In this document: positions 18,087-47,491 of the stretch, one piece after another | Position numbering within the stretch: the first letter of the stretch is position 1 | Layout of the letters: every line of letters begins with the position of its first letter | Assembly (NCBI GenBank): GCA_963734575.1 | Contig: CAVTHT010000007.1 | Span: 224,549-288,548 of the forward strand | DNA from: an uncultured beta proteobacterium | GTDB taxonomy: Bacteria > Pseudomonadota > Gammaproteobacteria > Burkholderiales > Casimicrobiaceae | Direction: 5' to 3' | Length of the DNA stretch: 64,000 bases | Position numbers and translations under genes: made by a program | Notes under the pieces: generated by a model | Told to the model about the DNA's origin: nothing | Seen by the model: the letters and a program-made list of their open reading frames with translations, nothing else | Databases searched by the model: none

Positions 18087-18094
18087 CTTTCCTT

Positions 18095-18133: not shown

Positions 18134-18180
18134 CTTTCCCGGCGTCCGTCACGGGCGCATCGCAACCTCCAATCACGCTC

Positions 18181-18696
18181 ATGAACGAACAACCGCATGT
18201 CGCGCACGAAGGCGGCGTCTCCGCCCGCACGGTCGAGCTCGTCGTCGCGCTGCTGATCTTCGCGCTGGGAATGCTGGTCCTCGTGGACAGCTACCGGCTC
18301 GGCTCGAAGTGGGGCGCCGACGGCCCGCAGTCCGGATACTTCCCGTTCTACATCGGCGTGCTGCTGTGCATCGCGAGCGGCATCATCTTCGTCCAGGGCC
18401 TCGCCAACTCGGCGATGAAGGGCGAGCTCTTCGTCACGTGGGGACCGTTGAAGCTCGTGCTGACGGTGCTGATCCCAGCGGCGGTCTACGTGCTCGCGGT
18501 GCAGTACATCGGGCTCTACATCGCGTCCGCCATCTACATCACGGTCTTCATGGTCTGGCTGGGCCACTACTCCTGGCTGCGCAGCCTGGCGGTGGGCATC
18601 GGTGTCAACGTCGCGCTGTTCCTGATGTTCGAAGTCTGGTTCAAGGTGCCGTTGTTCAAGGGCGAGCTCAACCCGCTCGGCTTCCTGGGCTACTGA
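18181..18696 (+). CDS. tctB: tripartite tricarboxylate transporter small permease TctB
   Basis: 171-aa 4-TM protein directly between tctC and tctA. Confidence 0.8.
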   Translation: MNEQPHVAHEGGVSARTVELVVALLIFALGMLVLVDSYRLGSKWGADGPQSGYFPFYIGVLLCIASGIIFVQGLANSAMKGELFVTWGPLKLVLTVLIPAAVYVLAVQYIGLYIASAIYITVFMVWLGHYSWLRSLAVGIGVNVALFLMFEVWFKVPLFKGELNPLGFLGY

Positions 18697-18720
18697 TCCC
18701 ACCCGCCGCTAGGAGACGCA

Positions 18721-20232: not shown

Positions 20233-20254
20233 CGCTTGCCGACTGGGTGCAGAC

Positions 20255-21094: not shown

Positions 21095-21134
21095 ACGCGC
21101 GCCGCGCGACGGCGGACGAGGGTGCATCGGCGAA

Positions 21135-21186
21135 CCATAATCGATTGCTTATCGTCATCATCGGAAGTTCTGATTAGTCGTTATGG
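21135..21186. promoter_or_regulatory. AT-rich element CCATAATCGATTGCTTATCGTCATCATCGG..CGTTATGG upstream of frc, sharing CTTATCRTYAT and ATCGAT with the lysR/tct palindrome
   Basis: The only AT-rich patch in the 570-bp frc leader. Motif similarity to 16364..16391 seen by eye. Confidence 0.3.
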
Positions 21187-21668
21187 TGCGCCGCGCAGTA
21201 CCCTTGGGATCGGGCTGCTCGCCACGGCGCCCGGGTGTTTCGATCAAACGAGCGTGGGATGCGATCCTCGTAATCCGGCCGATTCGCACGCACCATCCTC
21301 CCGCGACAGCCGATCCTGGTCGCTGCCCGCGCTGGTCCCGCGCATCGCCCTGTCGATTCAAAAAACCCGCATCACAACCTTCTGCCTTGCCGGCCAATCA
21401 CCGCTGGGGGGCACCGCAAGTGTTCGCGTCACCGACAAAAACTACGCACTGCACGGAAATCTGCGGCGGCGCTCAACATCCTCGCGGCCCTGCTCGCGTG
21501 GTTCGTGCTTCGCCCGATGCGGCGCGCACTGATCGAGAACAGCAAGACCGAGGCGCCCGCCGGCAGTGTCCCGCAGCCGGCATGACATGCAACACGGGCG
21601 ATCGGGCCCATGGAACGGAACGACGCGGCGGCCACGCCGCGTCGTGTGATCGCAAAAAAGGAGACGAG

Positions 21669-22946: not shown

Positions 22947-22992
22947 CGCGCTGCACCAGCGCAGGCACCGGGTACGTGTCGATGGAGACGCA

Positions 22993-24708: not shown

Positions 24709-24735
24709 CGGCGGGCGCTGGCCAAGGATGGCGAA

Positions 24736-27548: not shown

Positions 27549-27661
27549 GCGCGCCGGCGGGATTCGCAGGGGCGGCTGCCGCCCCGCACGACTGACGCGG
27601 GGCGACAGGCCCCGCCCACGGGTCCGCGGCCACGCCGCGGGCCGCACCAGGAGACAGGCCA

Positions 27662-29824
27662 ATGGCGGACGACAAGATGCATTCAGGGGGAACGATGACG
27701 CAGAACAAGACGGCAGTCCGGCAGATTCTCGACAAGGTCAAGGCGGACGGACGCACCTCGCTCACCGCGCCCGAAGGCAAGCTCGTCTGCGACGCCTACG
27801 GCATTCCCGTGCCGCGCGAAGGCGTGGCGACGTCGCGGCAGGAGGCGGCGCAGCTCGCGGCCGGCATGGGCTTCCCGGTGGTGCTCAAGATCGTGTCGCC
27901 GGAGATCCTGCACAAGACGGAAGCCGGCGGCGTGCTGGTCGGCGTCAAGTCCGCGCAGGAAGCGGAGCAGGGCTTCGACACCATCATGGCCAACGCGAAG
28001 AAGTACGACGCGAAGGCGAACCTCCTCGGCGTCCAGGTGCAGCAGATGCTGAAGGGCGGTCAGGAAGTGATCGTCGGCGCCGTCACCGACCCGTCGTTCG
28101 GCAAGCTCGTCGCGTTCGGCCTCGGCGGCGTGCTCGTCGAGGTGCTGAAGGACATCACGTTCCGTCTCGCGCCGGCGACGCGCGAGGACGCGCTGTCGAT
28201 GCTCGACGGCGTGCAGGCGGCGGAGATCCTCAAGGGCGTGCGGGGCGGCGACGCGGTGAACCGCGACGCGCTCGCGTCGCTCATCGAGAGCGTGTCGCGC
28301 CTCGTCTCCGACTTCCCCGAGATCGCCGAGATGGACCTCAACCCCGTGTTCGCCACCAAGGAGGGCGCCACGGCGGCGGACGTGCGCATCGTGGTGGACT
28401 GGAATCCCGCGCCCGCGCGGTTCCGGCCGAAGCACGAGGACATCGTGCGCGACATGAACCGCATCATGAAGCCCGATGCGGTGGCGGTGATCGGCGCGTC
28501 CAACGAGGCCGGCAAGATCGGCAACTCGGTGATGAAGAACCTGATCAACGGCGGCTACCAGGGCGAGATCTATCCCATCCATCCGTCCGCGGACGAGATC
28601 ATGGGGCGCAAGGCGTACAAGAGCGTCAAGGACGTGCCCGGCAAGATCGACGTCGCGGTGTTCGCGATCCCGGCCAAGTTCGTGGCGCAGGCCCTCACCG
28701 AGGTCGGCGAGAAGAAGATCCCCGGCGCGGTGCTCATCCCGTCGGGCTTCGCGGAAACCGGCAACGTCGAGGGGCAGAAGGAGATCCAGGAGATCGGGCG
28801 CAAGTACGGCGTGCGCTTGATGGGACCGAACATCTACGGCTTCTACTACACGTGGAAGAATCTCTGCGCGACGTTCTGCACGGCGTACGACGTCAAGGGC
28901 CACGCGGCGCTGTCGTCGCAGTCGGGCGGCATCGGCATGGCGATCATCGGCTTCTCGCGCTCGGCCAAGATGGGCGTGTCGGCGATCGTCGGACTCGGCA
29001 ACAAGTCCGACATCGACGAGGACGATCTCCTCACCTTCTTCGAGCAGGACGACAACACGCACATCATCGCGCAGCACTGCGAGGACCTGAAGGACGGGCG
29101 CGCCTTCGCGGAAGTTGCGAAGCGCGTGTCGAAAAAGAAGCCGGTCGTGGTGCTGAAGGCGGGCCGCACCAGCATGGGGGCGCGCGCCGCGAGCTCGCAC
29201 ACCGGTGCGCTCGCCGGCAACGACAAGATCTACGAGGACGTGCTCAAGCAGTCCGGCGTGATCCGCGCGCGCAGCTTGCGCGACCTGCTGGAATTCGCGC
29301 GGGCGATTCCCGTGCTGCCGACGCCGAAGGGCGAGAACGTGGTGATCATCACCGGCGCCGGCGGCTCCGGCGTGCTGCTGTCGGATGCCTGCGTCGACAA
29401 CAACCTGCAGCTCATGACGATGCCGCCGGATCTCGACACGGCGTTCAAGAAGTTCATCCCGCCGTTCGGGGCTTCCGGCAACCCGGTGGACATCACCGGC
29501 GGCGAGCCGCCGAAGACGTATCAGAACACGATCCGGCTCGGTCTCGAGGACCCGCGCATCCACGCGCTGATCCTCGGTTACTGGCACACGATCATCACCC
29601 CGCCGATGGTGTTCGCGAAACTCGTCGCCGAAGTCGTCGAGGAGTTCCGAGCCAAGGGCATCTCGAAGCCGATCGTCGCCTCGCTCGCGGGCGACGTCGA
29701 GGTCGAGGAAGCCGCGGAGTATCTGTTCGATCACGGCGTTCCGGCGTACCCCTACTCGACCGAGATGCCCGTCGCCGTGCTCGGCGCGAAGTACAAATGG
29801 GCGCGTGGCGCGGGAATAATCTGA
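27662..29824 (+). CDS. ADP(NDP)-forming acyl-CoA synthetase, fused ATP-grasp + CoA-binding/ligase-CoA domains (acetate--CoA ligase family)
   Basis: 720-aa intact ORF. N-terminal ATP-grasp (..LTAPEGKLVCDAYGIPVPREG..), CoA-binding (..AVIGASNEAGKIGNSVMKNL..) and succinyl-CoA-synthetase-like CoA-ligase domain (..VGLGNKSDIDEDD..HTGALAG..). Confidence 0.8.
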   Translation: MADDKMHSGGTMTQNKTAVRQILDKVKADGRTSLTAPEGKLVCDAYGIPVPREGVATSRQEAAQLAAGMGFPVVLKIVSPEILHKTEAGGVLVGVKSAQEAEQGFDTIMANAKKYDAKANLLGVQVQQMLKGGQEVIVGAVTDPSFGKLVAFGLGGVLVEVLKDITFRLAPATREDALSMLDGVQAAEILKGVRGGDAVNRDALASLIESVSRLVSDFPEIAEMDLNPVFATKEGATAADVRIVVDWNPAPARFRPKHEDIVRDMNRIMKPDAVAVIGASNEAGKIGNSVMKNLINGGYQGEIYPIHPSADEIMGRKAYKSVKDVPGKIDVAVFAIPAKFVAQALTEVGEKKIPGAVLIPSGFAETGNVEGQKEIQEIGRKYGVRLMGPNIYGFYYTWKNLCATFCTAYDVKGHAALSSQSGGIGMAIIGFSRSAKMGVSAIVGLGNKSDIDEDDLLTFFEQDDNTHIIAQHCEDLKDGRAFAEVAKRVSKKKPVVVLKAGRTSMGARAASSHTGALAGNDKIYEDVLKQSGVIRARSLRDLLEFARAIPVLPTPKGENVVIITGAGGSGVLLSDACVDNNLQLMTMPPDLDTAFKKFIPPFGASGNPVDITGGEPPKTYQNTIRLGLEDPRIHALILGYWHTIITPPMVFAKLVAEVVEEFRAKGISKPIVASLAGDVEVEEAAEYLFDHGVPAYPYSTEMPVAVLGAKYKWARGAGII

Positions 29825-29832
29825 CGCGACAC

Positions 29833-29866
29833 GAGATGTGGCCGATCAGAGTCGCGGCCACATCTC
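29833..29866 (+). terminator. 12-bp perfect hairpin (GAGATGTGGCCG-loop-CGGCCACATCTC) between the acyl-CoA synthetase gene and oxc
   Basis: Perfect inverted repeat with a 10-nt loop. No U-tract, so it may be a processing or stability element rather than a terminator. Confidence 0.3.
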
Positions 29867-29930
29867 GAACGACTACAGGAGCCACCATGGACACTGACCA
29901 GCGACGCGCAAGGAACCGGCCCCGGCCGGA

Positions 29931-31690
29931 ATGCAGGCGACCCAGGACATGACGAGCGGCGGCCAAGCCAATGCCAGCGCCGAAGCGCAGGAAACCACCG
30001 GCTTCAATCTCGTCATCGAGGCCCTGAAGCTCAACGGCATCGACACGATCTTCGGCCTCCCCGGCATTCCGATCACGGACCTCACGCGCAAGGCACAGGC
30101 CGCCGGCCTGCGCGTGATCTCGTTCCGGCACGAGCAGAACGCCGGCTATGCCGCGTCGATCGCGGGCTTCCTGACGCAGAAGCCGGGCATCTGCCTGACC
30201 GTGTCGGCGCCGGGGTTCCTCAATGGCCTGACGGCCCTCGCCAATGCCACCACCAACTGCTTTCCGATGATCCTCATCAGCGGCTCCAGCGAGCGCGAGG
30301 TCGTCGACCTGCAGCAGGGCGACTACGAGGAAATGGACCAACTCGCGATCGCCAAGCCGTTGTGCAAGGCCGCGTTCCGCGTGCTGCACGCCGAGGACAT
30401 CGGCGTCGGAATCGCGCGTGCCATCCGCGCCGCGGTGTCCGGGCGTCCGGGCGGCGTCTACCTCGATCTTCCGGCCAAGCTGTTCCCGCAGGGCGTGGAT
30501 GCGGAAGCCGGCAAGCAGTCGCTCATCAAAGTGGTCGATCCGGCACCGCGCCAGATCCCCGCGCAGGATGCCGTGCAGCGTGCGGTCGACCTGCTGAAGA
30601 GCGCCAAGCGGCCGCTCATCATTCTCGGCAAGGGCGCCGCCTACGCCCAGGCCGACGACGACATTCGTGCGCTGGTCGAGAAGACCGGCATCCCGTACCT
30701 GCCCATGTCGATGGCGAAGGGCCTGCTGCCCGACAACCACGAGCAATCCGCTGCGGCCGCGCGCTCGTACGTGCTGCCCGAGGCCGACGTGGTGATGCTG
30801 ATCGGTGCGCGCCTCAACTGGCTGCTCTCGCACGGCAAGGGCAAGACATGGGGCGGCAGAGAGCACCAAGGCGTGGGGCGGTCAGAAATTCGTGCAGATC
30901 GACATCTCGCCGCAGGAGGCCGACAGCAACGTTCGCATCGATGCGCCCGTGGTCGGCGACATCGGTTCGTGCGTCGCCGCGCTGCTCGGCACGATCGGAA
31001 ACCAGTGGCCCAAGCCGCCGTCGGACTGGCTCGACGCGATCGCCGAGCGCAAGACCAAGAACGTCGCGCAAGATGGCCGAGACGCTCGCCAGGAATCCGT
31101 CGCCGATGAATTTCCACAGCGCGCTCAACGTGGTGCGCGACATCGTCAAGGCGAATCCCGATGCCATGCTGGTCAACGAAGGCGCCAATGCGCTCGACTT
31201 CACCCGCAGCATCGTCGACATGTACAAGCCGCGGCGGCGCGTCGACGTCGGCACCTGGGGCGTGATGGGCATCGGGATGGGCTTCTCCGTGGCGGCAGCG
31301 GTGGTCACGGGCCAGCCGGTGATCGCGATCGAAGGGGACAGCGCGTTCGGCTTCTCCGGGATGGAGTGCGAGACCATCTGCCGCTACAACCTGCCGGTGT
31401 GCGTCGTCATCATGAACAACAACGGCGTCTACCGCGGGGACGAGGTCAATCCTACGGGCGGCTCCGACCCTTCACCGCTGGTGTTCGTCAAGGACGCGCG
31501 TTACGAGAAGCTGATGGAGGCCTTCGGCGGCGTCGGCGTGCATGCGACGACGCCGGCTGAATTGCGCAAGGCGATGGAAGAAGCCGTCCGCTTGCGCAGG
31601 CCGACGCTCATCAATGCGGTGATCGACGAGGCCGCCGGCACCGAAAGCGGTCGCATCACGAGCCTCAATCCGACCGCGAAGAAGAAATGA
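29931..31690 (+). CDS. oxc: oxalyl-CoA decarboxylase (ThDP-dependent); two single-base frameshifts near 30860 and 31075
   Basis: ..[72 protein letters not shown].. then ..[22 protein letters not shown].. then ..[64 protein letters not shown]. Colinear with O. formigenes Oxc across three frames. Confidence 0.9.
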
Positions 31691-31793
31691 GCCGAAGGCG
31701 TTGCACACCTGCGGTGCAGTCGTAAGCTCCCCCTCCTGGTAGACAGCGATGACTGGACTTTTCTGGCAGGATTTTGCCTGGAGGGAGGGTCCA

Positions 31794-32060
31794 ATGAAGA
31801 AGTCCCGATTCACGGAGTCGCAGATCGTCGCGATTCTCAAAGAGGGAGAAGCCGGCGTCGCCGTCGCCCAGCTCACCCGGAAGCACGGGATCAGTGCCGC
31901 TACGTACTACCACTGGAAATCGAAATACGGTGGAGCTGCCGTGTCGGAGCTAAAGCGCCTGCGCGAACTCGAGGCCGAGAACGCGAAGCTCAAGCGCATG
32001 TATGCCGACCTGGCGCTCGAGAACACTGCGATCAAGGACGTGCTCAGCCGAAAAATCTGA
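31794..32060 (+). CDS. IS3-family transposase OrfA (HTH)
   Basis: MKKSRFTESQIVAILKEGEAGVAVAQLTRKHGISAATYYHWKSKYGG..leucine zipper. Confidence 0.8.
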   Translation: MKKSRFTESQIVAILKEGEAGVAVAQLTRKHGISAATYYHWKSKYGGAAVSELKRLRELEAENAKLKRMYADLALENTAIKDVLSRKI

Positions 32061-32896
32061 CGCCGTCAGCCAAGCGCGAAGTGATCCGGATCATGACCGC
32101 GGAACACGATCTGCCGATCGTTCGCGCTTGCCAGATTGCCCGGCTATCGCGGGCGGCGTACTACAAGCCGGGCGTCGACCGAATGGCGCGCGATGCCGAG
32201 GTGATCGTGGCCTTGCAGGCGATCGTCGTCGAAGAGCAGCGCTGGGGCTTCTGGAAGTGCCATGACCGGCTGCGTGCGCAAGGCTACGGCTGGAACCACA
32301 AGCGCGTGTGGCGGGTGTACTGCCAGCTTCGGCTTAACCTGCCGCGCCGCACCAAGCGACGTGTTCCCCAACGCGAACGGCAACCGCTGATCGTCGAGCC
32401 GCGTATGAATGCAGTCTGGGCGCTCGATTTCATGCGCGACACGCTCTACAGCGGTCGGGTGTTCCGAACCCTCAACGTCATCGACGAAGCCAACCGTGGT
32501 GCGCTGGGCATCGACATCGCCGTGAGCATCCCCGCGGCGCGCGTCATCACGTTTCTGGCGCAAATGATCGATCTGCACGGCCGCCCGGCAGCCATTCGCT
32601 GTGATAACGGCCCGGAGCTCACCAGCCAGACCTTCACCGACTGGTGCAAGGAGCAGGACATCGAGCTGCGCTTCATCCAGCCCGGCAAGCCAGACCAGAA
32701 CGCCTACATCGAACGATTCAACCGGACGTATCGCGAGGAGGTCCTGAGCGCCTACCTGTTCGACTCACTCGACGAGGTGCGTGAGATCACAGCGGACTGG
32801 ATCGAGCGCTACAACGAGATCCGTCCACACGACGCGCTGGGCAGCCTGCCGCCAGCGCGCTACCGCGAGCGTTTGCTCGGCGGAACTCCAGTTTAG
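32057..32896 (+). CDS. IS3-family transposase OrfB (DDE integrase core), expressed by -1 frameshift from OrfA
   Basis: ..WALDFMRDTLYSGRVFRTLNVIDEANRGALGI..IRCDNGPELTS..QPGKPDQNAYIERFNRTYREE.. is the rve domain. The -1 frame is continuous from ..NLTPSAKREVIRIMTAEHDL. Confidence 0.85.
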   Translation: MTPSAKREVIRIMTAEHDLPIVRACQIARLSRAAYYKPGVDRMARDAEVIVALQAIVVEEQRWGFWKCHDRLRAQGYGWNHKRVWRVYCQLRLNLPRRTKRRVPQRERQPLIVEPRMNAVWALDFMRDTLYSGRVFRTLNVIDEANRGALGIDIAVSIPAARVITFLAQMIDLHGRPAAIRCDNGPELTSQTFTDWCKEQDIELRFIQPGKPDQNAYIERFNRTYREEVLSAYLFDSLDEVREITADWIERYNEIRPHDALGSLPPARYRERLLGGTPV

Positions 32897-34296: not shown

Positions 34297-34574
34297 GAGA
34301 GCGCGCCCGCCATCTGGCGCCGCCAAGACCTGCCGGGGAGCGTCGTCATCATGAACAACAACGGCGTCTACCGCGGCGACGAGGTCAATCCTACGGGCGG
34401 CTCCGACCCTTCACCGCTGGTGTTCGTCAAGGACGCGCGTTACGAGAAGCTGATGGAGGCCTTCGGCGGCGTCGGCGTGCATGCGACGACGCCGGCTGAC
34501 TTGCGCAAGGCGATGGAAGAAGCCATCCGCTCGCGCAGGCCGACGCTCATCAATGCGGTGATCGATGAGGCGGC
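34297..34574 (+). pseudogene. 3' fragment of a second, diverged oxalyl-CoA decarboxylase copy (oxc'), truncated upstream by the low-GC insert and interrupted downstream by an IS21-family element
   Basis: ~96% nucleotide identity to oxc 31395..31650 (..[78 protein letters not shown]). It ends exactly at the IS21 left terminus TGTCAGTGGG. Confidence 0.7.
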
Positions 34575-34649
34575 TGTCAGTGGGAATCCAATAATCCCCA
34601 GCTGTAGGAATTGAATTTTCCTCACCCATCCTCGATCAGGAGATCGCAG

Positions 34650-35966
34650 ATGGAAGGGACGCAAGAAGTGGCAGTGGAGGTCGCCGGTATCGTCGCCGTG
34701 CCCGAGGTGGGCGCGGAGATGCCGGTGATCAGCAAAGAACGGTGGGAGCAATTGCGGCGACTGCACGCGCTGGGGCAGTCGATCTCGCAGATCGCCCGCA
34801 CGGCGGGTTTGGACCGCAAGACGGTGCGCGCTGGCCTGCGTAAGCTCGAATGGGTGCCATACCAGCGGGCGCCGGTGGCTGAGACGCTGCTTTCGATCCA
34901 CCACGGGTGGCTAGTCGAGCGTGCTCCGCAGGTGAATTACTCGGCGCGGATTCTGTTCCAGGAACTGCGCGCGACGCGCGGCTACCAGGGCGGCTATGAC
35001 ACCGTGCGCAATGCCGTGCGCCCGCTGCGCCGGGAAGCCGCGGCGGCGTCGCTCACCCAGTGTCGGTTCGAGACGGAGCCGGGCGAGCAAGGCCAGGTGG
35101 ATTGGGGCCAGGTGCGTGTGCAATTCGCCAACGGTCCGGCGACGGTGCATGTGTTCGTGCTGACGCTTGGCTACTCGCGTCGAGCGTGGGCGGAGGGCTA
35201 CGAGAACGAGCGCATGGGTTCACTTCTGGCAGCGCACGAACACGCCTTCTCGCATTTCGGTGGTCGTCCCGCGGAGCTGCTCTACGACCGGATGCGCACC
35301 GTGACCATGAAGCCCGCCGCGGAGAAGGCGAAGTGGAATCCGACCTTCGAGAGCTTCTTCCGCCACTGGGGCTTCGAGCCGAGCGCTGTGCCGGCCGTAC
35401 CGGGCCCAGACCAAGGGCAAGGTCGAGTCGGGCGTGAAGTATGTCAAGCGCAACTTCATCCCGGCCGGGTGTTCGTCGATCTCGCCGACTTCAACGACCA
35501 ACTGGCGACCTGGCTCGGCGAGGTCGCCGACGTGCGCGTGCACGGCACCACGCATGAGCGGCCGATCGACCGCTTTGCGCGCGAAGCCGGCGCCCTGGTG
35601 CGCACCATCGACCAGCCAGCGTTCTTCCGGCGCTACAGCGGGAGCGGTGGTGGCCGACGACTGGCTGGTCAGCCATCGACGCCAACCGCTACTCGGTACC
35701 GTGGCGGCTCATTGGCAAGACGGTCGAGCGTGGTGCGGGTGGGCTCGAGCTGGCAGATCTCCCACGGCGGCGCGGTCGGTGGCCGAGCATCCGGTGCTCA
35801 CCGGTCGCGCATCAGGTGCTGGTCGATCCTGCCCACGGCCCCGGTGCAGTGGCGCGCAACGCTCGCACCCGCTTCAGTGCACCGCTCACCGGTTCATGCG
35901 GCCAACGACGTGCAGCGCAGTCGAAGTGCGCGACCTCGACGTCTATGAACAGCTGCTGGAGGTCGC

Positions 35967-35970
<4 letters not shown>
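34650..35970 (+). CDS. IS21 transposase IstA, at least 3-4 frameshifts
   Basis: HTH ..ISQIARTAGLDRKTVRAGL.. and DDE region ..GEQGQVDWGQVRVQFANGPATVHVFVLTLGYSRRAWAEGYENERMGSLLAAHEHAF.., then ..KGKVESGVKYVKRNFIP.., ..VHGTTHERPIDRF.. and ..VEVRDLDVYEQLLEVA are spread over three frames. Confidence 0.75.
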
Positions 35971-36749
<779 letters not shown>

Positions 36750-36808
36750 ACCGGGGTGAGGAGATTTCGATTCCTATGTCTGGGGAAATCTGGATTCCTG
36801 TTGACACG

Positions 36809-36867
36809 CGGCCGGCACCGAAAGCGGTCGCATCACGAGCCTCAATCCGAGCGCGAAGAAGAAGTAG
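36809..36867 (+). pseudogene. last ~19 codons of oxc' (..[18 protein letters not shown]) displaced by the IS21 insertion
   Basis: CGGCCGGCACCGAAAGCGGTCGCATCACGAGCCTCAATCCGAGCGCGAAGAAGAAGTAG matches the oxc 3' end with 3 substitutions. It continues the fragment that stops at 34574. Confidence 0.7.
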
Positions 36868-36905: not shown

Positions 36906-37079
36906 GTCAGGCTTCAGCCTGACATGGGGCCGGCCGATGTCAGGCTGAAGCCTGACCCACAGCGCAATCCTCCGTTCGTGGTCAGGCTGAAGCCTGACTA
37001 CAGCGCTTGGCCGTTCGGCGTCAGGCTGAAGCCTGACCTACAGCGCATTCGGCCGTTCGTCGTCAGGCCGAAGCCCGAC
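36906..37079. repeat. tandem array of about four 41-bp units, each carrying the 17-bp palindrome TCAGGCTGAAGCCTGAC (5 hairpins, last degenerate); REP/BIME-like
   Basis: Hairpins at 36906-36923, 36940-36956, 36982-36998, 37021-37037 and 37063-37079. Inter-hairpin segments are mutually similar (YACAGCGCnnnnnnCCGTTCGnnG), so this is a tandem repeat, not CRISPR. The last unit overlaps the 3' end of the convergent qor gene. Confidence 0.8.
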
Positions 37080-38098: not shown

Positions 38099-38351
38099 GA
38101 CATCGCTTCCCTGTTTACATCGCGCCAGCGATTGTACCGAGCGCTCGGCGGCCTCCCGGCAACGGCTCTGCGACTTCGCGCCGCGGTTGCAGCGCGCCCC
38201 GCTTGACAGCGGTCAACGCGTATGTTGCAGTGCAGCATCAGAATTCAGCAAGGCGTGAGCCAACGGGCGTGCGACCGACCGGGCACCGGTCTTGCGACGC
38301 ACAAAACACGGCGGGGGCCGCGACCGCCCGCGACCGACGAGGGAGCCGCAC

Positions 38352-39330
38352 ATGAAGATCGCGATCATCGGAGCTGGAGCCATCGGCGGATACGTCGGCG
38401 CGAAGCTCTCGCTCGCTGGCGATGAGGTGACGTTCGTTGCGCGTGGCGCCAATCTCGATGCGTTGCGCCTGCACGGAATGCGCCTGATCGAGGACGGCAA
38501 CGAGCGCGTGGCCAGGGACATCCGCGCGGTGGAACGGTGTGCCGCGGCGGGACCGCAGGACCTCGTGATCCTCGCCGTGAAGGCGCACCAGCTCGACGCG
38601 ATCGCGCCGGACGTCGTGCACCTGCTCGGGCGCGACACCGCGGTCGTCACCATGCAGAACGGCATCCCGTTCTGGTATTTCCATCGCCACGGTGGCGTGC
38701 TCGAAGGCACGCAGGTGCGCAGCGTGGATCCGACAGGGATGCTCGGCCGCCACGTCCCGCCGCAGCGCGTGATCGGCTGCGTGGTCTATCCCGCCTGCGA
38801 GCTCGCAGCGCCCGGTGTCGTCCGCCACGTGGAGGGCAACCGGTTCCCGCTCGGTGAGCTCGACGGCACCGTAACGGCGCGCGTGACGCGCATCGCGGAC
38901 GCGTTCACGGCCGCCGGCCTCAAGGCGCCGGTGCTGCGAGAACATCCGCGCCGAGATCTGGCTCAAGCTCTGGGGCAACCTGAGCTTCAACCCGATCAGC
39001 GCGCTCACGCGTTCCACGCTCGTGGACATCTGCCGCGACCCGCTGACGCGGGAGCTGACGCACGCGATGATGACGGAAGCCCAGGCGGTCGCGGGCAAGC
39101 TGGGCATCACGTTCCGCGTGCCCATCGACAAGCGCATCGCGGGCGCCGAAAAGGTCGGCGCCCACAAGACGTCGATGCTGCAGGACGTGGAAGCCGGACG
39201 CGAGCCGGAGATCGACGCGCTGCTCGGATCGGTGGTCGAGCTTGCGCGCCTCACCGAAACGCCGACGCCGCACCTCGACGCGGTGTTCGCGCTGACCAGG
39301 CGCCTTGCCGATGCTCTGGGCGAGATCGCA
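38352..39330 (+). CDS. panE: 2-dehydropantoate 2-reductase (ketopantoate reductase, PanE/ApbA family); frameshift near 38945; 3' boundary uncertain
   Basis: MKIAIIGAGAIGGYVGAKLSLAGDEVTFVARGANLDALRLHGMRLI..AVKAHQL.. then ..NIRAEIWLKLWGNLSFNPISALTRSTLVDI..KTSMLQDVEAGREPEIDALLGSVVELARL.. are colinear with PanE. Confidence 0.7.
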
Positions 39331-39431: not shown

Positions 39432-40931
39432 TCAGCCGCCGGACGCGCACTGGCTACGTAGCACGTTCTTCTGCACCTTGCCCATCGCGTTGCGCGGCAG
39501 CTCGTCGACGAACACCACGCGCTTGGGCACCTTGAAGCTCGCGATCTCCGCCTTGAGCGCGACGATGATGTCGCGCTCCGACAGCTCGCATCCCGCCTTC
39601 GGCACCACGACCGCGGTGACCGCTTCGCCGAAGTCCGGGTCCGGAACGCCGATCACGGCGCTCTCGGCGACGCCGGGCAGCGCGTCGATGTGCTCCTCGA
39701 TTTCCTTCGGATACACGTTGAGGCCGCCGGTGATGATGAGGTCCTTGGCGCGTCCCACGATCTGCACGTAACCCTCGGCGCTCCACGTGCCCATGTCGCC
39801 GGTGCGGAAGAAGCCGTCGGCCGTGAACTCCTCCTTCGTCTTCTCGGGCATGCGCCAGTAGCCCGGGAACACGTTCGGTCCCTTCACCTCGATGGCCCCC
39901 ACGGTGCCCGCGGCGCACGCGTGCCCTTCGTCGTCGACGATGCGCAGCTCCACGCCGGGTAGCGGGCGGCCGACGGTGCCGGCCACGCGCGGTCCGTCGA
40001 GCGGATTGGACGTGTTCATGCCCGTCTCGGTCATGCCGTAGCGCTCGAGGATGCGCTGACCCGTGCGCGCCTCGAACTCGGTGAACGTCTCCGGCAGCAG
40101 GGGCGCCGAGCCCGAGACGAAGAGGCGGATGGTGCTGCATGCGTTGCGATCGAACGTCGGCTCCGCGAGCAGGCGCGTGTAGAACGTGGGCACGCCCATC
40201 ATCACGGTGGCGCGCGGCAGGAGCGCCATCACTTCGGCCGCATCGAACTTGGGCAGCCAGAGCATGCGCGCGCCCGAGAGCAGCACGCAGTGGATCGCGA
40301 CGAAGAGCCCGTGCACGTGATAGATGGGCAGCGCGTGCAGCAGCACGTCGCCGCGCACGAAACCCCATTCCTCGACCAGGGCGAGCGCGTTCGACGCGAG
40401 GTTGCGGTGCGTCAGCATCGCGCCCTTCGAGCGCCCCGTCGTCCCCGACGTGTAGAGGATCGCGGCGAGGTCATCGGGTGCCGAGGTGACCGTCGGGAAC
40501 GTCGGGTCCTGTCCCCGCGCGTGCTCGTCCAGCGATCCGCCGGCGGCGCCGAGGGTGAGCACCTTCGCCCGCGGTGCGAGGGGCGCGAGCACGCCCTCCG
40601 CCTCGGGCCGGCACACGATCACCCGCGGCTCCGCATTGTCGAAGAAGTAGCTGAGCTCGCCGCGCTGGTAGCCCGTGTTGAGCGGCAGGTACACGCAGCC
40701 GGCGCGCAGGCACCCGAGGTAGAGCGCGATCACCTGCCAGTGCTTGTCGGTCTGCACGGCCACGCGATCGCCGGGCTGGCAGCCGGCGTCACGCAGGGCA
40801 TGCGCATAGCGCGCCGACAGCGCCGCGAGGTCGTCGTAATGGATCACCGGGCCGTCCGGGATCAGCACGCAGGGCTGCTCGGGCTCGTCGCCGAAGTGGC
40901 TCGCGAAAAGGGAATAGAGGTTCGCGTTCAT
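39432..40931 (-). CDS. matB: malonyl-CoA synthetase (AMP-forming, MatB-type)
   Basis: Aligns along its length to Rhizobium MatB (..LAAILYTSGTTGRSKGAMLTH..IYHVHGLF..MGVPTFYTRLL..LFVSGSAPLL..ILERYGMTETGMNTSNP..GDMG..GRAKDLIITGGLNVYPKEIE..PRNAMGKVQKNVLR). Intact. Confidence 0.85.
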   Translation of the reverse strand: MNANLYSLFASHFGDEPEQPCVLIPDGPVIHYDDLAALSARYAHALRDAGCQPGDRVAVQTDKHWQVIALYLGCLRAGCVYLPLNTGYQRGELSYFFDNAEPRVIVCRPEAEGVLAPLAPRAKVLTLGAAGGSLDEHARGQDPTFPTVTSAPDDLAAILYTSGTTGRSKGAMLTHRNLASNALALVEEWGFVRGDVLLHALPIYHVHGLFVAIHCVLLSGARMLWLPKFDAAEVMALLPRATVMMGVPTFYTRLLAEPTFDRNACSTIRLFVSGSAPLLPETFTEFEARTGQRILERYGMTETGMNTSNPLDGPRVAGTVGRPLPGVELRIVDDEGHACAAGTVGAIEVKGPNVFPGYWRMPEKTKEEFTADGFFRTGDMGTWSAEGYVQIVGRAKDLIITGGLNVYPKEIEEHIDALPGVAESAVIGVPDPDFGEAVTAVVVPKAGCELSERDIIVALKAEIASFKVPKRVVFVDELPRNAMGKVQKNVLRSQCASGG

Positions 40932-41126
40932 GAAGGACCGGGACGGGCGCGCAAGCACGACGGTCGGGCATTATTTCACAGGGGTGCGGAACGCCCGGTG
41001 CCCGGCAAAGCGCGGCCGCCGCGTGGCTTGCGCTCCGACGGCGCATGCCACTAAGGTGTCGGCACAACAAGAGGCAGGACGCATGCCATTCTCGCGCCGC
41101 ATGCCGGCGCCACTTTCGGAGGAAAC

Positions 41127-42150
41127 ATGAACATCCATCGACGCCGGCTGGTCGCCGGAGCACTCGCGACCGTTCCCCTCGCCCTCGCGGGTTCGCGCAC
41201 GTTCGCGCAGGGCACCGGAAACCTCAAGATCTCGCACCAGTTTCCCGGCGGCACGATCGACAAGGGCGATTTTCGCGACCGCCTCTGCCGCCGCTTCGCG
41301 CAGGACGTCGAGAAGCGCACGAATGGCGCGCTCAAGTTCGACATCTATCCCAACTCGTCGCTGGTGAAGGTCAACTCGCAGTTCAGTGCGCTGCGGCGCG
41401 GCGCGCTCGATCTGTCGCTGGTGCCGATCTCGTATTCCGGCGGCGAAGTTCCGGAGACCAACATCGGCCTGCTGCCGGCGCTGGTGCCGTCCTACGAGGT
41501 GGGCGCGCCGCTGGAAGGATGCGGAGGTCGGCAAGCTCGTCAGCGCCATGCTGGCCGAGAAGGGCATCGTGATGGTCTCGTGGATCTGGCAGGCGGGCGG
41601 CGTGGCGAGCCGGTCGAAGCCGCTCGTGCAACCCGACGATGCGAAGGGCATGAAGATCCGCGGCGGCAGCCGCGAGATGGACATGATGTTCAAGAACGCG
41701 GGAGCGTCGGTGCTGTCGCTGCCGTCCAACGAGATCTATGCCGCGATGCAGACCGGCGCGATGGACGCGGCGCTGACGTCGTCCACCAGCCTCATCTCCT
41801 TCCGCCTCGAGGAAGTGTCGAAGCACCTCACGAGCGGCCGCGGCCGCTCGTACTGGTTCATGCTGGAGCCGCTCATCATGTCGAAGCAGATCTTCGACAA
41901 GCTGCCGAAGGCGCAGCAGGACGCGATCATGGCGGTCGGCGCGGACATGGAGAAGTTCGCGGTGGAAAGCGCGAAGGCCGACGACATCGCCGTCGCCGAC
42001 GTGTACACCAAGGCCGGCGCGAAGGTGTACGACCTCGACGATGCCACGCTGCGCAAGTGGCAGGCGCTCGCCGGTCCGGTGTGGAAGGACTACGCCGACA
42101 AGAACGAAGGCTGCGCGAAGCTTCTTGCGGCTGCCCAGAAGCTGCTGTGA
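41127..42150 (+). CDS. dctP: TRAP transporter substrate-binding protein (DctP family); frameshift near 41515
   Basis: Tat/Sec signal MNIHRRRLVAGALATVPLALAGSRTFA. NLKISHQFPGG.. then ..WKDAEVGKLVSAMLAEKGIVMVSWIWQAG..AKGMKIRGGSREMDMMFKNAGASVLSLPSNEIYAAMQTGAMDAALTS.. is the DctP signature. Confidence 0.8.
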
Positions 42151-42233
42151 CCGGTGCGGGTGAGTCGCCCGGGCTGACCAGCGCCGAGCCCACGCCTCAT
42201 GCCGGCGGCCTGCTCGGCGCCGGCGACCGCGCG

Positions 42234-42707
42234 ATGCTGTGGATCAATCGCGCGGTGCTGTTCGTGAGCATGCTGGCGCTCGTCGCCGCGGCGCTGGTGC
42301 TCACCTACAGCGTGCTGTCGCGCTATTTCTTCCACGCCAACACCGACTGGCAGGACGAGGCGGCCGTGTTCTGCCTCGTCGGTGCGACGTTCCTCTGCGG
42401 TGCATGGGTGCAGGGGCAGCGCGGGCACATCGGCATCGAGGCGGTGGCGAGCATCCTCCCGCGCCGCGTCAATCGTGTCCGCCAGGTGATCGTGGACGTG
42501 CTGACGCTGGCGTTCTGCGCGTTCTTCGCGTGGAAGTCGTGGACGCTGTTCCACGAGGCATGGGTGGACAACCAGACGACGTCGTCGACGTGGGCGCCGC
42601 CGCTCGCGATTCCCTACGGCCTCATGTCGTTCGGGATGACCCTGCTCGTGCTGCAGCTGCTGCTGCAATGCGTCGGGCACGCCGTCGGGCGGCGCGCGCC
42701 ACGATGA
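42234..42707 (+). CDS. dctQ: TRAP transporter small permease (DctQ family)
   Basis: 157-aa 4-TM protein between dctP and dctM. Its stop overlaps the dctM ATG. Confidence 0.75.
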   Translation: MLWINRAVLFVSMLALVAAALVLTYSVLSRYFFHANTDWQDEAAVFCLVGATFLCGAWVQGQRGHIGIEAVASILPRRVNRVRQVIVDVLTLAFCAFFAWKSWTLFHEAWVDNQTTSSTWAPPLAIPYGLMSFGMTLLVLQLLLQCVGHAVGRRAPR

Positions 42708-44057
42708 GCATGCTCGCACTCGGCCTGCTGTTCACGGCCGTGACCCTGGTCGTGATGTTCTCCGGCATGCCGATCTCGTTCGCGCTCGGCACGGTCGCCG
42801 TGGGCTTCATGTATTTCTTCATGCCGGCGTCCTCGCTCGACACCGTGACGCAGAACGTCTACGAGGAGATGGCGAGCATCACCCTGCTCTCGATCCCGCT
42901 GTTCATCCTCAAGGGCGCAGCGATCGGCCGGTCCGATGCCGGGCGCGATCTCTACCTCGCGATGCACGCGTGGATGCAGCGCGTGCCGGGCGGCCTCGGC
43001 ATCGCCAACGTGTTCACCTGCGCGCTGTTCGCCGCGATGGCCGGGTCGAGCCCCGCCACGTGCTCGGCCATCGGCAGCGCCGGCATCCCCGAGATGCGCA
43101 AGCGCGGCTACTCGCCGGGGTTCGCGGCGGGGATCATCGCCGCCGGCGGCACCTCGGGCATCCTGCTGCCGCCATCGATCACGATGATCCTCTACGCAGT
43201 CGCCGCGGAGGTGTCGCTCGGCCGCCTCTTCCTCGCGGGGATCGGCCCCGGGCTCCTGCTCGTCGCGCTGTTCGCGGGGTACGCGATGTACCGGTTCCGC
43301 AAGGAATACGCCGCGGCGGATCTCGCCTTCCGCGAGCACGGGCACGCCTCGGCCTACCTCGGCGAAAAGCGCTACACGATGCGCGAGCGCGTCGAGATGC
43401 TGCCGCGCGTGCTGCCGTTCGTGATCCTGCTGATCGGCGTCATGGCGGCGCTCTACGGCGGCTATGCCACGCCGTCGGAGACCGCCGGCCTCGGCGCCGT
43501 CCTGGCGCTGCTCCTCATCGCGTTCGTCTACGGCGTGTGGCGACCGCGCGACCTCAAGCCCATCCTCGGGGCAACGCTCAAGGAATCGACGATGCTGATG
43601 TTCATCATCGGCATGTCGCTCCTGTTCTCCTACGTGATGAGCTACCTGCACATCAGCCAGTCGGCGGCGCAGGCGATCGTCGCGATGCACCTGTCGAAGT
43701 GGCTGCTGCTCACGGCGATCCTGCTGCTCGTCGTCGTGCTCGGGTTCTTCCTGCCGCCGGTGAGCATCATCCTGATGACGGCGCCGATCATCCTGCCGCC
43801 GCTGCGCGCGGCCGGCTTCGACCTGATCTGGTTCGGCGATCCTGATGACCATCGTGATGGAGATGGGCCTCATCCATCCACCGGTGGGGCTCAACATCTT
43901 CGTCATCAAGAACATCGCGCCCGACATACCGCTGCGCGACGTGATCTACGGGGTGCTGCCGTTCGTCGCGCTGATGTTCGTCGCCATCGTGCTGATCTGC
44001 ATCTTCCCCGGCATCGCCGTCGCGTTCCCGAACTGGATCATGGGTGCCGGAAAATGA
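42704..44057 (+). CDS. dctM: TRAP transporter large permease (DctM family); frameshift near 43840
   Basis: MSMLALGLLFTAVTLVVMFSGMPISFALG.. 12-TM DctM signature. C-terminus ..LMTIVMEMGLIHPPVGLNIFVIK..FPNWIMGAGK is in a second frame. Confidence 0.8.
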
Positions 44058-44131
44058 GCGCCGCATTCGGTCGGGGTTCGGTTCCCGAGGGGCGTGGAGT
44101 GGCGCGAAGCCCGCGCGGCCGGGAGTAGCGC

Positions 44132-45497
44132 GTGGCGCAGCCGCTCGCGTCGCGCACGCCCGCGCAACGCATCGAGGCGCTGGCCGATCCCGGCACGGCG
44201 CGCGCGATCGACCCGTTCGACGCGCCCAGGCCGAGCCCGCATCTCGCCCGCTGGGGCATCGCGCCGCGCGACGACGATGGCGTCGTCATCCGCGGGGGTG
44301 AGCTTCTTGGCCGCAGCGTGCTGTTCGCTGCGCAGGACGCAACGTTCCTCGGCGGCGCGGTGGGCGAGCGTCAGGCGGCCGCGCTGCAGGAGCTGTTCGC
44401 GCATGCGCAGCGCGAGCGTCCCGCCGCCGTCGTGCTCCTCGCTGCATCCGGCGGCGTGCGCCTGCACGAGGCCAATCCGGCGGAGCTCGCCCTCGCGCAC
44501 GCGCTGCGCGCGCTCCTCGATCTGCGCGCGGCCGGCGTGCCGGTGCTCGCGCTCGCGTGCGGCGACGTGTTCGGCGGCGCGTCGGTCCTCACCTGTGCGG
44601 CCGACCGCGTCGGCATGCTGCCCTCCGCACGCCTCGGGTTGTCGGGTCCGAAAGTGATCGCCACCGCGCGCGGCGATGCCGAGCTCGACCCGACGGATCG
44701 TGCTGCCATCGATGCAATCTTCGGCGCCGCGGCACGACTCGCGCGCCGCCAGGCGGATCTCGTCGCCGACGACGCGGACGCGTTGCGCGGCTGGCTCACC
44801 GCGGTGATTGCAGCGCGTGAACCGTTTCCCGCGGCGATCGCCACGCAGCACGCAGCGCTGTCCGCACAGCTCGCGCGCGCGGTTGCGCCCGGCGCTATCG
44901 AGTGGAGCTTGCCCGCGGCGTGGCGCGACCTCGTCGTTCCGGTCGACGCGGCGCGCGGCCTGTTCCGGTCACGCACGGGTGGCGCATGGATCGCCGCCGC
45001 GGCGGGTCGGCATCACGTCGGTCCGGAACGCGTGCACGCACTCGACTCCGCATTGCTGGAGCACGTTGCCGGCACGGCGAAACCCGGCGACGTGCTGCTG
45101 CTCGTCGAGGATTCGCTCGGCCACGAAGTGTCGCGCAGTGCGGAAGAGCGCTGTCTCTCGCGCTTCCTCGCCCACCACGCCGCCGTGCTCGCGCTCCTGC
45201 GCCACGGTGGCGTGGAAGTGCGCGGGCTGTTGGCGGGATGCGGTCACAGCGCGGCATTCTTCTCGCACGCGCTGCAGGCGACGCGCCTCCTTGCGTTGCG
45301 GGAGGCTCGTGTCGTCGCGATGGAACGGCAGGCGGTGGCGCGCGTGACGGGGCTCGACGCCGATGCGCTCGCAGCGTGCATCGAGACCGATCCGGTGCTT
45401 GGCCATGCTGGCGACCGCCTTCGCGCACTGGGGCGGCGTCGAAGCGTTGCTGGATGCGCCGGACGCCGCCGCGCTGGAGACGCTCCTCAGACGTTAG
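44132..45497 (+). CDS. fused malonate-decarboxylase beta (MdcD) and gamma (MdcE) carboxyltransferase subunits; C-terminal frameshift near 45390
   Basis: N-terminal half ..RTPAQRIEALADPGTARAIDPFD..DDGVVIRGGELLGRSVLFAAQDATFLGGAVGE..LLAASGGVRLHEANPAE..LGLSGPKVIATARG.. aligns to Klebsiella MdcD. C-terminal half ..PGDVLLLVEDSLGHEVSRSAEERCLSRFLAHHAAVLALLRHGGVEVRGLLAGCGHSAAFFSHALQATRLLAL.. aligns to MdcE. There is no stop between the halves. The natural end ..AMLATAFAHWGGVEALLDAPDAAALETLLRR* is in the +1 frame. Confidence 0.7.
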
Positions 45498-46643
45498 CGG
45501 ACTCGCGCCGCTGCCCACAGTCGCGCGACCTGCTCCGCACGGTCCGCAAGCAGGGCGTCGGCGCGCGCGAGCGCTGTGTCGAGCGTCATGGGTGCATCCG
45601 GCAACGCAAAGCAGCCGGCAAAGACGGTGGACAGCGCGGGCAGGGCCTCGAGCGTCGACCGCGCCGGCGATCAGCGTCGCCGGCACGTGCGCACGGCGCG
45701 CCCGCGACGCGGCAATCCACGGCGCCTTGCCGGCCGAGCGTCTGCTCATCGGTGCGTCCTTCACCGGTGATCAGCCAGTCGGCCCCCGCCAGGGCACCAT
45801 CGAGGTCGATCAGATCGGCGACCACTTCCGCGCCGGGCCGCAGCGCTGGCGCCGAGCAGCAGCAGCGCGAAGCCGAGTCCGCCCGCGGCTCCCGCACCCG
45901 GCAACGCTGCGACGGATTTTCCGAAGGCCTGCTCCGCGCACGCGCCGAAATGGGCGAGCGTGGCATCGATGCTCTTCACCTCCTCCGCGCCGACGCCCTT
46001 TTGCGGGCCGAACACCGCCGTCGCGCCGCGCGGACCGGTCAGCGGATTGTCGACATCCGACAGCACCGTGATCGAGCACTCGCGGATGCGTGGATCGATC
46101 GTTGACGCATCCACGCGCGCCAGTCGCGTCAACCCCTGCGGGGTCGGCTCGACGGCAGCGCCATGTTCGTCGAGGAGCTGCGCGCCGAGCGCAGCGAGGA
46201 GCCCGGCGCCGCCATCGTTCGTGCTGCTGCCGCCCAGGCCCACCATGAAACGGCGGATGCCGCGGTCCATGAGCGCGCGCATGATCTCGCCCATGCCGCG
46301 CGTGCTGCGTGCATGGACGGGAGCATGCATGCCGTCGCGATCGGTGATGCCGACGACGCTGGCCGCCTCGATGACGCCCAGCTCGCCCTGCCCATCGCGC
46401 AGCACGCCATAGGGCAGCGGGCGACGCTCTGCCTTCCGCACCCGATGCGGCGTGCGTGCAGCGCTCGCCGCCACTCCCCGCCAGAAGCGCGTCGAGCGTG
46501 CCGTCGCCGCCGTCCGCCATCGGCCGGGAACGCACCTCGGCATCCGGCCACACGCGCAGGAGGCCGCGCGCGATCGCTGCGCAAACCTCTTGTGCGGTGA
46601 GCGAGCCCTTGAACTTGTCGGGAGCGAGAACGATGACCGTCAT
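45490..46643 (-). CDS. glxK: glycerate kinase (GlxK/GarK family); at least 3 frameshifts
   Basis: MTVIVLAPDKFKGSLTAQEVCAAIARGL..ADGGDGTLDALL.. (46643 frame). ..GMGEIMRALMDRGIRRFMVGLGGSSTNDGGAGLLAALGA..FGPQKGVGAEEVKSIDATLAHF..GAGAAGGLGFALLLLGA.. (46543 frame). ..PGAEVVADLIDLDGALAGADWLITGEGRTDEQTL.. (45966 frame). ..AGKAPWIAAS.. (45764 frame). Confidence 0.65.
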
Positions 46644-46733: not shown

Positions 46734-47491
46734 TTGCGCCTGTTGCGCCCGCTCGTCGCTCTCGCATTCTTCGCTGCAGGATTCGCCTACGCGCAGCCGC
46801 GCATCGATTACGCCCGCGAGGAGCGACTCGCGCAGGAGATCCTGCCGGCCCTCATGACCGGTGACGCCGTGTATCTGCGCACACCGTCGCGCGCCCGCGT
46901 CCTCGCGCTGGAGACGCGTCCGTCCGGCACGGCCAAGGGGGCCGTGGTCATCGTGCACGGCCTGGGCGTGCATCCGGACTTCGGCATGATCGGCACGTTG
47001 CGCGGGCTCCTCGCCGACGCCGGGCTACGTCACGCTGGCCGTGCAGATGCCCGTGCTTCCCGCCGACGCGCCGCGCGACGAGTACGCCACCACCTTCGAT
47101 GCAGCGGGCGAGCGCCTGGCTGCGGCGGTCGCGCACCTGCGCGATGCGGGAGCCCGGCGCGTGGCGATCGTCGCCCACAGCATGGGCGCGAGCATGACCG
47201 ACGCGTACCTTGCCCGGCCGACCGCAGCGCGCATCGACGCGTGGGTGCCCGTCGGCATGCTCGTGCCGTTTTCCGTCGCGCCGCGCGAGCCCGTGCTCGA
47301 CGTGATCGCCGAGCGCGACCTGCCAGCCCGTGGTGGAAACCAGTCCGGCGCGGAAGAAAGCGTTGCCGCCGGACCGCTGCTCCGGCCAGGTGCACGTCGC
47401 CGGCGCGGATCACTACTTCGATGGCACCGAGAAGCTCCTCGCGCAGGAGATCGTGCGCTTTCTCGATCGTGTCGCAGCGGGCGGCTGCTGA
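46734..47491 (+). CDS. secreted alpha/beta-fold hydrolase-like protein (DUF3530-like); 2 frameshifts
   Basis: Signal MRLLRPLVALAFFAAGFAYA. ..GAVVIVHGLGVHPD.. then ..VAIVAHSMGASMTDAYL.. (GxSxG) then ..VHVAGADHYFDGTEKLLAQEIVRFLDRVAAGGC* spread over three frames. Confidence 0.4.

Follow-up and report, generated by a model that had tools for sequence, protein, structure and literature searches.

Here, we provide comparative evidence that a fused MdcD-MdcE gene (positions 44132-45497, + strand) in a stretch of DNA from an uncultured betaproteobacterium of the Casimicrobiaceae (64,000 nucleotides of contig CAVTHT010000007.1; the whole stretch is hereafter called the window) probably encodes a single-chain malonyl-coenzyme A (malonyl-CoA) decarboxylase, which would act independently of a carrier protein and derive from the MdcD-MdcE module of biotin-independent malonate decarboxylase. 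We give this reading, which is a prediction from sequence and gene context, a probability of about 0.65, and we infer the substrate, the reaction direction and the physiological role of the fusion. In the proposed route, malonate would be taken up by a DctPQM-type tripartite ATP-independent periplasmic (TRAP) transporter and joined to CoA by MatB, with ATP being spent. The N-terminal domain of the fusion would bind the CoA moiety and polarise the thioester via backbone amides equivalent to those of MdcD Val121 and Gly162, and the enolate-stabilising oxyanion hole of this MdcD-like domain would drive the decarboxylation of free malonyl-CoA. The C-terminal domain would hold the malonyl carboxylate, and CO2 and acetyl-CoA would be released. 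The fusion would fill the place of the unrelated MatA in the rhizobial matABC and matPQMAB loci.

The proposed reaction has a precedent in vitro. MdcD-MdcE of Pseudomonas aeruginosa and Acinetobacter calcoaceticus decarboxylates free malonyl-CoA with a K0.5 of 100 µM and a kcat of 2.3 per s, and the authors of the structure left the physiological relevance of this weak malonyl-CoA decarboxylase activity open (PMC5534430). As the prosthetic group of MdcC, 2'-(5''-phosphoribosyl)-3'-dephospho-CoA, is a dephospho-CoA derivative and the canonical pair uses malonyl-CoA, the step from a carrier-bound to a free substrate is small. The activity of canonical MdcD-MdcE on malonyl-CoA in vitro also means that a route from TRAP uptake via MatB to MdcDE, as outlined in a preliminary description of this DNA, appears well supported by comparative evidence. 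Linkage of the fusion to MatB, lack of the other mdc genes, loss of the element that docks MdcA and the gene order of two related loci (L090 and L091) all agree with the predicted route.

Architecture, family and active site of the fused protein

The fused gene starts with a GTG at 44132, which is preceded at 7 nt by a GGGAG ribosome-binding site and separated by 74 nt from the stop codon of dctM; the G+C content of the window is ~70%. The MdcD-like (beta, CoA-binding) crotonase domain is encoded by 44132-44881 (+) and comprises amino acids (aa) 1-250. Within residues 8-251, matches are to NF005530 (aa 12-251, E=1.2e-53, 182 bits) and PF01039 (E=3.6e-10), and a profile search of the PDB assigns this domain to MdcD (5vip_B, E=4.5e-36). 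A linker (aa 251-292; 44882-45007, +) stands where canonical MdcD has its C-terminal helices and canonical MdcE its N-terminus, and in the alignment ~60 residues of canonical MdcD and MdcE are missing at this linker. The MdcE-like (gamma) crotonase domain (aa 293-454 and the stop codon; 45008-45497, +) matches PF06833 over aa 293-452 (E=8.7e-21, 75 bits), TIGR03134 (E=6.4e-25) and, in the PDB profile search, MdcE (5vip_A). PF01039 and PF06833 are the only Pfam families matched by the fusion. The AlphaFold2 model is a compact two-domain structure that is confident across the linker, with a predicted local distance difference test (pLDDT) value of 94.3 and a predicted template modelling (pTM) score of 0.94. 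Its best match among solved structures is P. aeruginosa MdcD (5vip_D, TM score 0.80), and two-domain carboxyltransferases come next, with a large root-mean-square deviation (rmsd).

The preliminary description had placed MdcD and MdcE in a single reading frame. This stands for aa 1-426 (44132-45409), which contain the MdcD/MdcE junction and most of both domains, but not for the last 28 codons (..ATAFAHWGGVEALLDAPDAAALETLLRR), which lie in another frame. The span 44132-45497 is 1366 nt long, i.e., 455 codons plus one base and thus not a multiple of three, and, set against its homologues, the sequence has one surplus base near 45410 (catgct[g]gcgacc), where the MdcE-like domain undergoes a +1 frameshift. 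Because of this extra base, the literal open reading frame (ORF) from 44132 extends to 46105. The stop codon of the corrected frame is located at 45495-45497, and the end coordinate of 45497 given in the preliminary description was therefore right. The +1 frameshifts in mdcDE, dctP and dctM went unnoticed there. A real gene on the opposite strand was considered and rejected; the shadow ORFs 43949-44968 and 44972-45493 have a coding-like G+C content at third codon positions, yet match no Pfam family. That the fusion itself is a frameshift artefact is ruled out by both domains being in frame up to aa 426 and by hundreds of homologues with the same architecture.

At least 764 clusters of homologues were retrieved from 5.8 billion proteins. 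The best 120 of these at least 764 clusters, which were inspected for length and domains, contain proteins of 408-553 aa that each have PF01039 and PF06833 and are at most 62% identical to the window protein. The alignment of 36 fused members is unbroken through the linker. Source databases call the fused proteins 'malonate decarboxylase subunit beta' or 'gamma'. Among species-representative genomes, the fused family occurs in uncultured Betaproteobacteria, most of which carry the label Casimicrobiaceae, and in one Rudaea metagenome-assembled genome (MAG), and a plasmid search (PLSDB) yielded canonical MdcD only and no fused member.

The phylogenetic comparison with canonical MdcD/E that had been envisaged in the preliminary description separates the two groups. 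In a neighbour-joining tree, the 36 fused proteins form their own clade, cleanly apart from 26 pairs of canonical MdcD+MdcE. The window protein also stays below the NCBIfam equivalog cut-offs of NF005530 (182.3 bits, cut-off 228), TIGR03133 (176.5 bits, cut-off 278) and TIGR03134 (88.1 bits, cut-off 237). This applies to all 36 fused members, the best of which reach at most ~182, ~177 and ~97 bits, respectively. A protein from a Chthoniobacterales MAG (L059, 2548-4464) was included among the canonical sequences of the tree; its mdcD and mdcE form one 638-codon frame that follows mdcA and mdcC in a canonical operon. As this protein is fused yet groups with the canonical pairs, fusion arose more than once and is not diagnostic alone. 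One Casimicrobiaceae MAG (DATBOK01) possesses two fused paralogues (L008 and L038) with 54% and 49% identity to the window protein, of which one adjoins MatB and the other is located directly downstream of an oxc-like gene.

In the Pseudomonas holoenzyme, the backbone amides of MdcD Val121 and Gly162 form the oxyanion hole, MdcD Arg180 is positioned near the CoA pyrophosphate, and MdcE Gln100, Tyr102 and Ser142 face the malonyl group, with Gln100 being important for activity (PMC5534430). MdcE residues 241-266 dock MdcA, and deletion of residues 242-268 abolishes the hetero-tetramer (PMC5534430). We mapped the P. aeruginosa residues via PDB alignments (5vip_B for MdcD) onto a joint alignment of the 36 fused and 26 canonical proteins. 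Val121 (V109 in the fusion) and Gly162 (G149) are kept in 36/36 fused and 26/26 canonical proteins, and the position of Arg180 (R167) is occupied by arginine in 33 of the 36 fused and in all 26 canonical proteins. On the malonyl side, Gln100 is glutamine in 26/26 canonical proteins and histidine (H331 in the window protein) in 36/36 fused proteins, where it is part of a DSxGHE motif. Ser142 is invariant among the canonical proteins (26/26), and the fused proteins have serine (26) or glycine (10 of 36) at this position. New invariant residues of the fused family on this side are A337, F377 and Q382. In the same alignment, the fused proteins stop ~35 residues short of the canonical MdcE end, i.e., the C-terminal extension is missing, and they also lack the helices at the C-terminus of MdcD as well as the N-terminus of MdcE. 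In sum, the fused family retains the CoA-binding, thioester-polarising half of the active site, has changed chemistry on the malonyl side and has lost the element for joining MdcA.

Gene neighbourhood of the fusion and the predicted malonate route

The preliminary description had named MatB (39432-40931) and a DctPQM-type TRAP transporter (41127-44057) as neighbours of the fusion, and matches from hidden Markov models and tblastn agree with this assignment. The intact matB gene (39432-40931, - strand) encodes a malonyl-CoA synthetase of 499 aa, which scores 790.6 bits against the malonyl-CoA synthase model NF005702 (cut-off 558) and is 60.6% identical to MatB of the Sinorhizobium meliloti matPQMAB locus. 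The divergent intergenic region between matB and dctP, as read from the sequence (40932-41126), presumably carries promoters; a promoter and terminator scan gave nothing above chance, and no match to the sigma-70 consensus was found in this gap. The gene dctP (41127-42150, +; NF037995, TRAP_S1) for the solute-binding subunit of the transporter was located by tblastn with the mdc-linked DctP of Ideonella, to which it is 65% identical. Residues 1-128 of the query match at 41127-41516 and residues 127-328 at 41512-42114 in another frame, and this +1 change of frame near 41512 fits one extra base. The small permease gene dctQ (42147-42707, +) has a product with 67% identity to DctQ of Ideonella (aa 1-185). 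The large permease gene dctM (42704-44057, +; TIGR00786) has a +1 frameshift near 43836, with an extra G in ttcggc[g]atcctg, and its product is 79% (aa 1-378) and 73% (aa 378-448) identical to Ideonella DctM in the two frames. The window transporter as a whole is thus 65-79% identical to the Ideonella TRAP transporter that is sited directly upstream of mdcACDEGBH. We infer that dctPQM and mdcDE form one operon.

None of the other components of a canonical malonate decarboxylase is encoded nearby. No tblastn match to MdcA, MdcB, MdcC, MdcG or MdcH (Ideonella and Klebsiella queries) was obtained in the whole 64-kb window, and with S. meliloti MatA as query, neither the window nor any fused locus gave a tblastn match (E<=1e-6). 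The absence of these genes within 5 kb, as reported in the preliminary description, thus extends across the entire window. Six-frame translation of the window shows a single biotinyl motif (EAMKL), at 63593, in the housekeeping accB beside accC and 18 kb away, and neither a biotin_lipoyl nor an OAD_beta family is present in the Pfam tables of fused loci.

The association with MatB and the lack of mdc partners are also apparent in related loci. We searched the flanks (~10 kb to either side) of 48 fused and 33 canonical loci by tblastn, with reference proteins from an Ideonella plasmid (dctPQM followed by mdcACDEGBH), Klebsiella and S. meliloti pSymA (matPQMAB). MatB was found in 31/48 fused loci, always upstream and divergent, and in 1/33 canonical loci (Fisher exact test, p=5e-9). 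MdcA, which 31/33 canonical loci encode, was present in 0/48 fused loci (p=2e-20), and the fused loci were equally devoid (0/48 each) of MdcC, MdcG, MdcB and MdcH, which were detected in 32, 27, 29 and 26 of the 33 canonical loci, respectively. MatA was found in neither set (0/48 and 0/33), and mdc-type TRAP genes were found in 7/48 fused and 12/33 canonical loci. The MatB orthologues beside fused genes are 62-83% identical to the window MatB, and on a Pfam-annotated contig (L001) a MatB-type ligase is likewise divergent from the fusion. L090 and L091 have the same order as the window with all genes intact, i.e., alcohol dehydrogenase (-), MatB (-), DctP, DctQ, DctM and MdcDE, and their dctM-mdcDE gap is only 8 bp. 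The downstream synteny of glxK, DUF3530, Sua5, MetK, OYE and AhcY is common across the lineage, which indicates that the fusion gene is at a fixed chromosomal position.

Further observations concern the genes around MatB. The sole canonical locus of the 33 with MatB nearby is L084 from a Geobacter sp. MAG, in which the canonical mdcA-C-D-E-G-B-H genes and a TRAP transporter are accompanied by a MatB homologue (60% identical) 3.2 kb upstream. In the window, a gene of the panE/ApbA family with similarity to 2-dehydropantoate reductases (38350-39330, +; NF005089, 470 bits after frameshift correction) is located between a Zn-dependent alcohol dehydrogenase gene and matB. ApbA-family genes also flank MatB in the related loci L006, L026, L039, L064 and L087.

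An oxalate-catabolism-type cluster is located at 15347-31690 of the window, 13-27 kb upstream of the fusion. It includes a LysR regulator (-), tctCBA (16821-20229), frc for formyl-CoA transferase (~21670-22943; NF003809, 583 bits), an NAD-dependent formate dehydrogenase (22729-27545), an ADP-forming acyl-CoA ligase (27596-29821) and a frameshifted oxc for oxalyl-CoA decarboxylase (29931-31690). TctCBA was considered as a dedicated partner of the fusion and rejected, since synteny with the oxalate cluster next to it (frc, oxc and formate dehydrogenase) accounts better for the adjacency. The 3' end of oxc (31380-31686) is duplicated at 34319-34579 (261 nt at 95% identity) and 36808-36863 (56 nt at 96% identity). 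These two pieces of the second oxc copy flank an IS21 element (istA/istB, 34608-36746), which therefore appears to have landed in a second oxc copy that was partial. A pair of IS3-type transposases is encoded at 31749-32896, and the G+C content falls to 55-63% over 32.7-34.3 kb. Two tandem 71-nt repeats that are 85% identical occupy 36928-37079, between IS21 and the alcohol dehydrogenase gene. Each repeat holds the palindrome GTCAGGCTGAAGCCTGAC, which resembles repetitive extragenic palindromic elements.

Oxalate-type genes directly adjoin the fusion in the three soil contigs of L087-L089 (2944-8338). There, genes for a SucC-like protein, a SucD-like protein and an oxc-like thiamine pyrophosphate (TPP) enzyme are co-directional with MdcDE, which comes last, with a 29-bp gap; MatB and an ApbA-family reductase are upstream and divergent. 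This arrangement hints at a broader island that would activate and decarboxylate small dicarboxylates via CoA.

Alternative explanations for the fused locus

Several observations weigh against the proposed function as malonyl-CoA decarboxylase. Replacement of Gln100 by histidine, and of Ser142 by glycine in 10 of the 36 fused proteins, implies that substrate or mechanism may differ, and given the altered malonyl-side residues the substrate may be a substituted malonyl-CoA. MatB is missing within 10 kb from 17 of the 48 fused loci, among which three have <4 kb of upstream sequence and L042 has none. The MatB-less fused loci, as well as L087-L089, abut an oxalate-type cluster (TctCBA, SucCD-like ligase, oxc-like TPP enzyme). 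No MatR/MdcY (GntR)-type regulator was detected near the locus in the window with S. meliloti and Ideonella queries. Finally, frameshifts in the window affect mdcDE and, of the three transporter genes, dctP and dctM.

MatB enzymes are known to accept substituted malonates. A promiscuous MatB could provide the fused protein with another carboxy-acyl-CoA, such as methylmalonyl-CoA or hydroxymalonyl-CoA (tartronyl-CoA), or the fusion could have a role linked to oxalate or glycerate. Such a substrate would be in accordance with the different malonyl side, i.e., the histidine in 36/36 fused proteins and the new invariant A337, F377 and Q382. It would also be in accordance with the presence of an oxc orthologue at most 10.5 kb from the fusion gene, as seen in 21/50 related loci (directly upstream in L008, L009 and L087) and of a glycerate kinase gene that adjoins the fusion gene in 24/48 loci. 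However, the window MatB is far over the cut-off for malonyl-CoA synthase and 60% identical to the characterised rhizobial MatB, and the TRAP transporter belongs to the type that accompanies operons for canonical malonate decarboxylase. The oxalate genes are close to the fusion without being its consistent operon partners and, by chemical reasoning, oxalyl-CoA is not decarboxylable via a thioester enolate. We therefore regard a substrate other than malonyl-CoA, or an oxalate- or glycerate-linked role, as unlikely. That the fusion is instead an ordinary beta-gamma part of a biotin-independent malonate decarboxylase, acting on malonyl-S-acyl carrier protein with MdcA, MdcC, MdcB, MdcG and MdcH encoded elsewhere, would be in line with its clear homology to MdcD and MdcE. 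The fusion alone is compatible with a canonical role, as the fused protein of L059 is encoded within a canonical mdcA-mdcC operon. Yet a canonical role is very improbable in view of the mdc partners, which are within 10 kb in 0/48 fused loci as opposed to 31 or 32 of the 33 canonical ones, the separate clade with scores under the equivalog cut-offs, the missing MdcE C-terminal extension for holoenzyme assembly and the conservation of MatB as neighbour instead.

The frameshifts could also be real mutations in mdcDE, dctP and dctM, in which case the locus would be decaying and the pathway non-functional in this genome. Three +1 frameshifts within the four-gene transporter-decarboxylase unit, together with insertion elements of the IS3 type and IS21 and a duplicated piece of oxc less than 10 kb away, are compatible with decay. 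But all located frameshifts in the window act as one-base insertions and none as a deletion when compared with homologues, and they are not restricted to this unit. In addition to one insertion each in dctP, dctM and mdcDE, we located four in glxK, two in the DUF3530 gene and one each in the genes for the Zn-dependent alcohol dehydrogenase, the panE-like protein and oxc (sites at 37864, 38880, 41512, 43836, 45410, 45515-46640, 46740-47488 and elsewhere). From its translation, ilvD appears frameshifted too, and matB and metK are free of frameshifts. The 28 codons past the shift in mdcDE still fit the family consensus (FAxWGG..). The nearest relatives are long-read soil MAGs, in which the fusion genes of L039, L047, L053, L056 and L064 are broken in the same way. 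Because the shifts are insertion-only, the consensus is kept after the shift, relatives are broken alike and L090 and L091 are intact, the frameshifts in the window are probably assembly errors, and decay of the locus is quite unlikely. Such a profile, with insertions only, points to a systematic error of sequencing or assembly and makes ORF-based gene calls in the window unreliable.

Relation to known malonate systems and implications

The proposed malonyl-CoA decarboxylase was compared with several known systems. Like MdcD-MdcE of P. aeruginosa (PDB 5VIP, 5VIT and 5VJ1) and A. calcoaceticus, the fusion has two crotonase-fold carboxyltransferase-type domains. Equivalents of MdcD Val121, Gly162 and Arg180 are kept in its N-terminal domain, which is 34-35% identical to MdcD with a TM score of 0.80. 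Unlike MdcD-MdcE, the fusion is a single chain, belongs to its own clade with sub-cut-off scores, has histidine in place of Gln100, lacks both the extension that docks MdcA and the C-terminal helices of MdcD, and is mostly encoded beside matB, with no mdcA, mdcC, mdcG, mdcB or mdcH within 10 kb. With MatA of rhizobial matABC and S. meliloti matPQMAB, it would share the proposed conversion of malonyl-CoA to acetyl-CoA and CO2. It also shares the adjacency to MatB; the S. meliloti locus has a TRAP malonate transporter as a further neighbour, and the window a TRAP transporter that is predicted to import malonate. The fusion and MatA are not related in sequence, as the tblastn search with MatA was empty and the Pfam matches of the fusion are limited to Carboxyl_trans and MdcE. 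The locus differs from matPQMAB also in that DctP is only 37-40% identical to MatP and in that no GntR regulator was found nearby.

Transcarboxylase 12S, PccB/AccD5, MmdA and GcdA are likewise single polypeptides with an N-terminal CoA-binding crotonase domain and a second one. Foldseek alignments of the fusion model with these single-chain carboxyltransferases span ~500 columns at 16-20% identity with an rmsd of 17-20 Å, which indicates a different domain arrangement. In contrast to the scheme proposed for the fusion, they pass CO2 to or from carrier-bound biotin, and their active sites form across a dimer. MadC-MadD of the biotin-dependent, sodium-pumping malonate decarboxylase of Malonomonas rubra is homologous to MdcD/MdcE and uses a malonyl thioester as substrate. 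The Malonomonas rubra system requires the biotin carrier MadF, the membrane decarboxylase MadB and the acyl carrier protein MadE; all three are absent from the Pfam-annotated neighbourhoods of fused loci, where no direct search for MadB was made. In the literature, we found no description of a fused MatB-linked MdcDE or of malonate use in Casimicrobiaceae. As the in vitro activity of the canonical pair is already known, the function assigned here is a well-supported, testable prediction and not a surprising new principle.

We find it fairly probable that the MatB-linked fused proteins represent a third, hitherto unrecognised physiological malonyl-CoA decarboxylase family. This family would be non-homologous to MatA/MCD, independent of MdcA and MdcC, mis-annotated in databases and, together with MatB and a carboxylate transporter, would constitute a distinct route of malonate catabolism. 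This route would be widespread in uncultured Betaproteobacteria of soil and wastewater (Casimicrobiaceae and relatives), which we hold to be likewise fairly probable. A side activity of the canonical enzyme on malonyl-CoA appears to have been turned into the main function, with the two subunits fused, the docking element lost and the protein wired to MatB. If true, the annotation of hundreds of proteins would be corrected, and metabolic engineering of malonyl-CoA pools would gain a compact malonyl-CoA decarboxylase encoded by one gene. A non-orthologous replacement of MatA would also enter models of malonate metabolism in abundant uncultured bacteria of soil and activated sludge.

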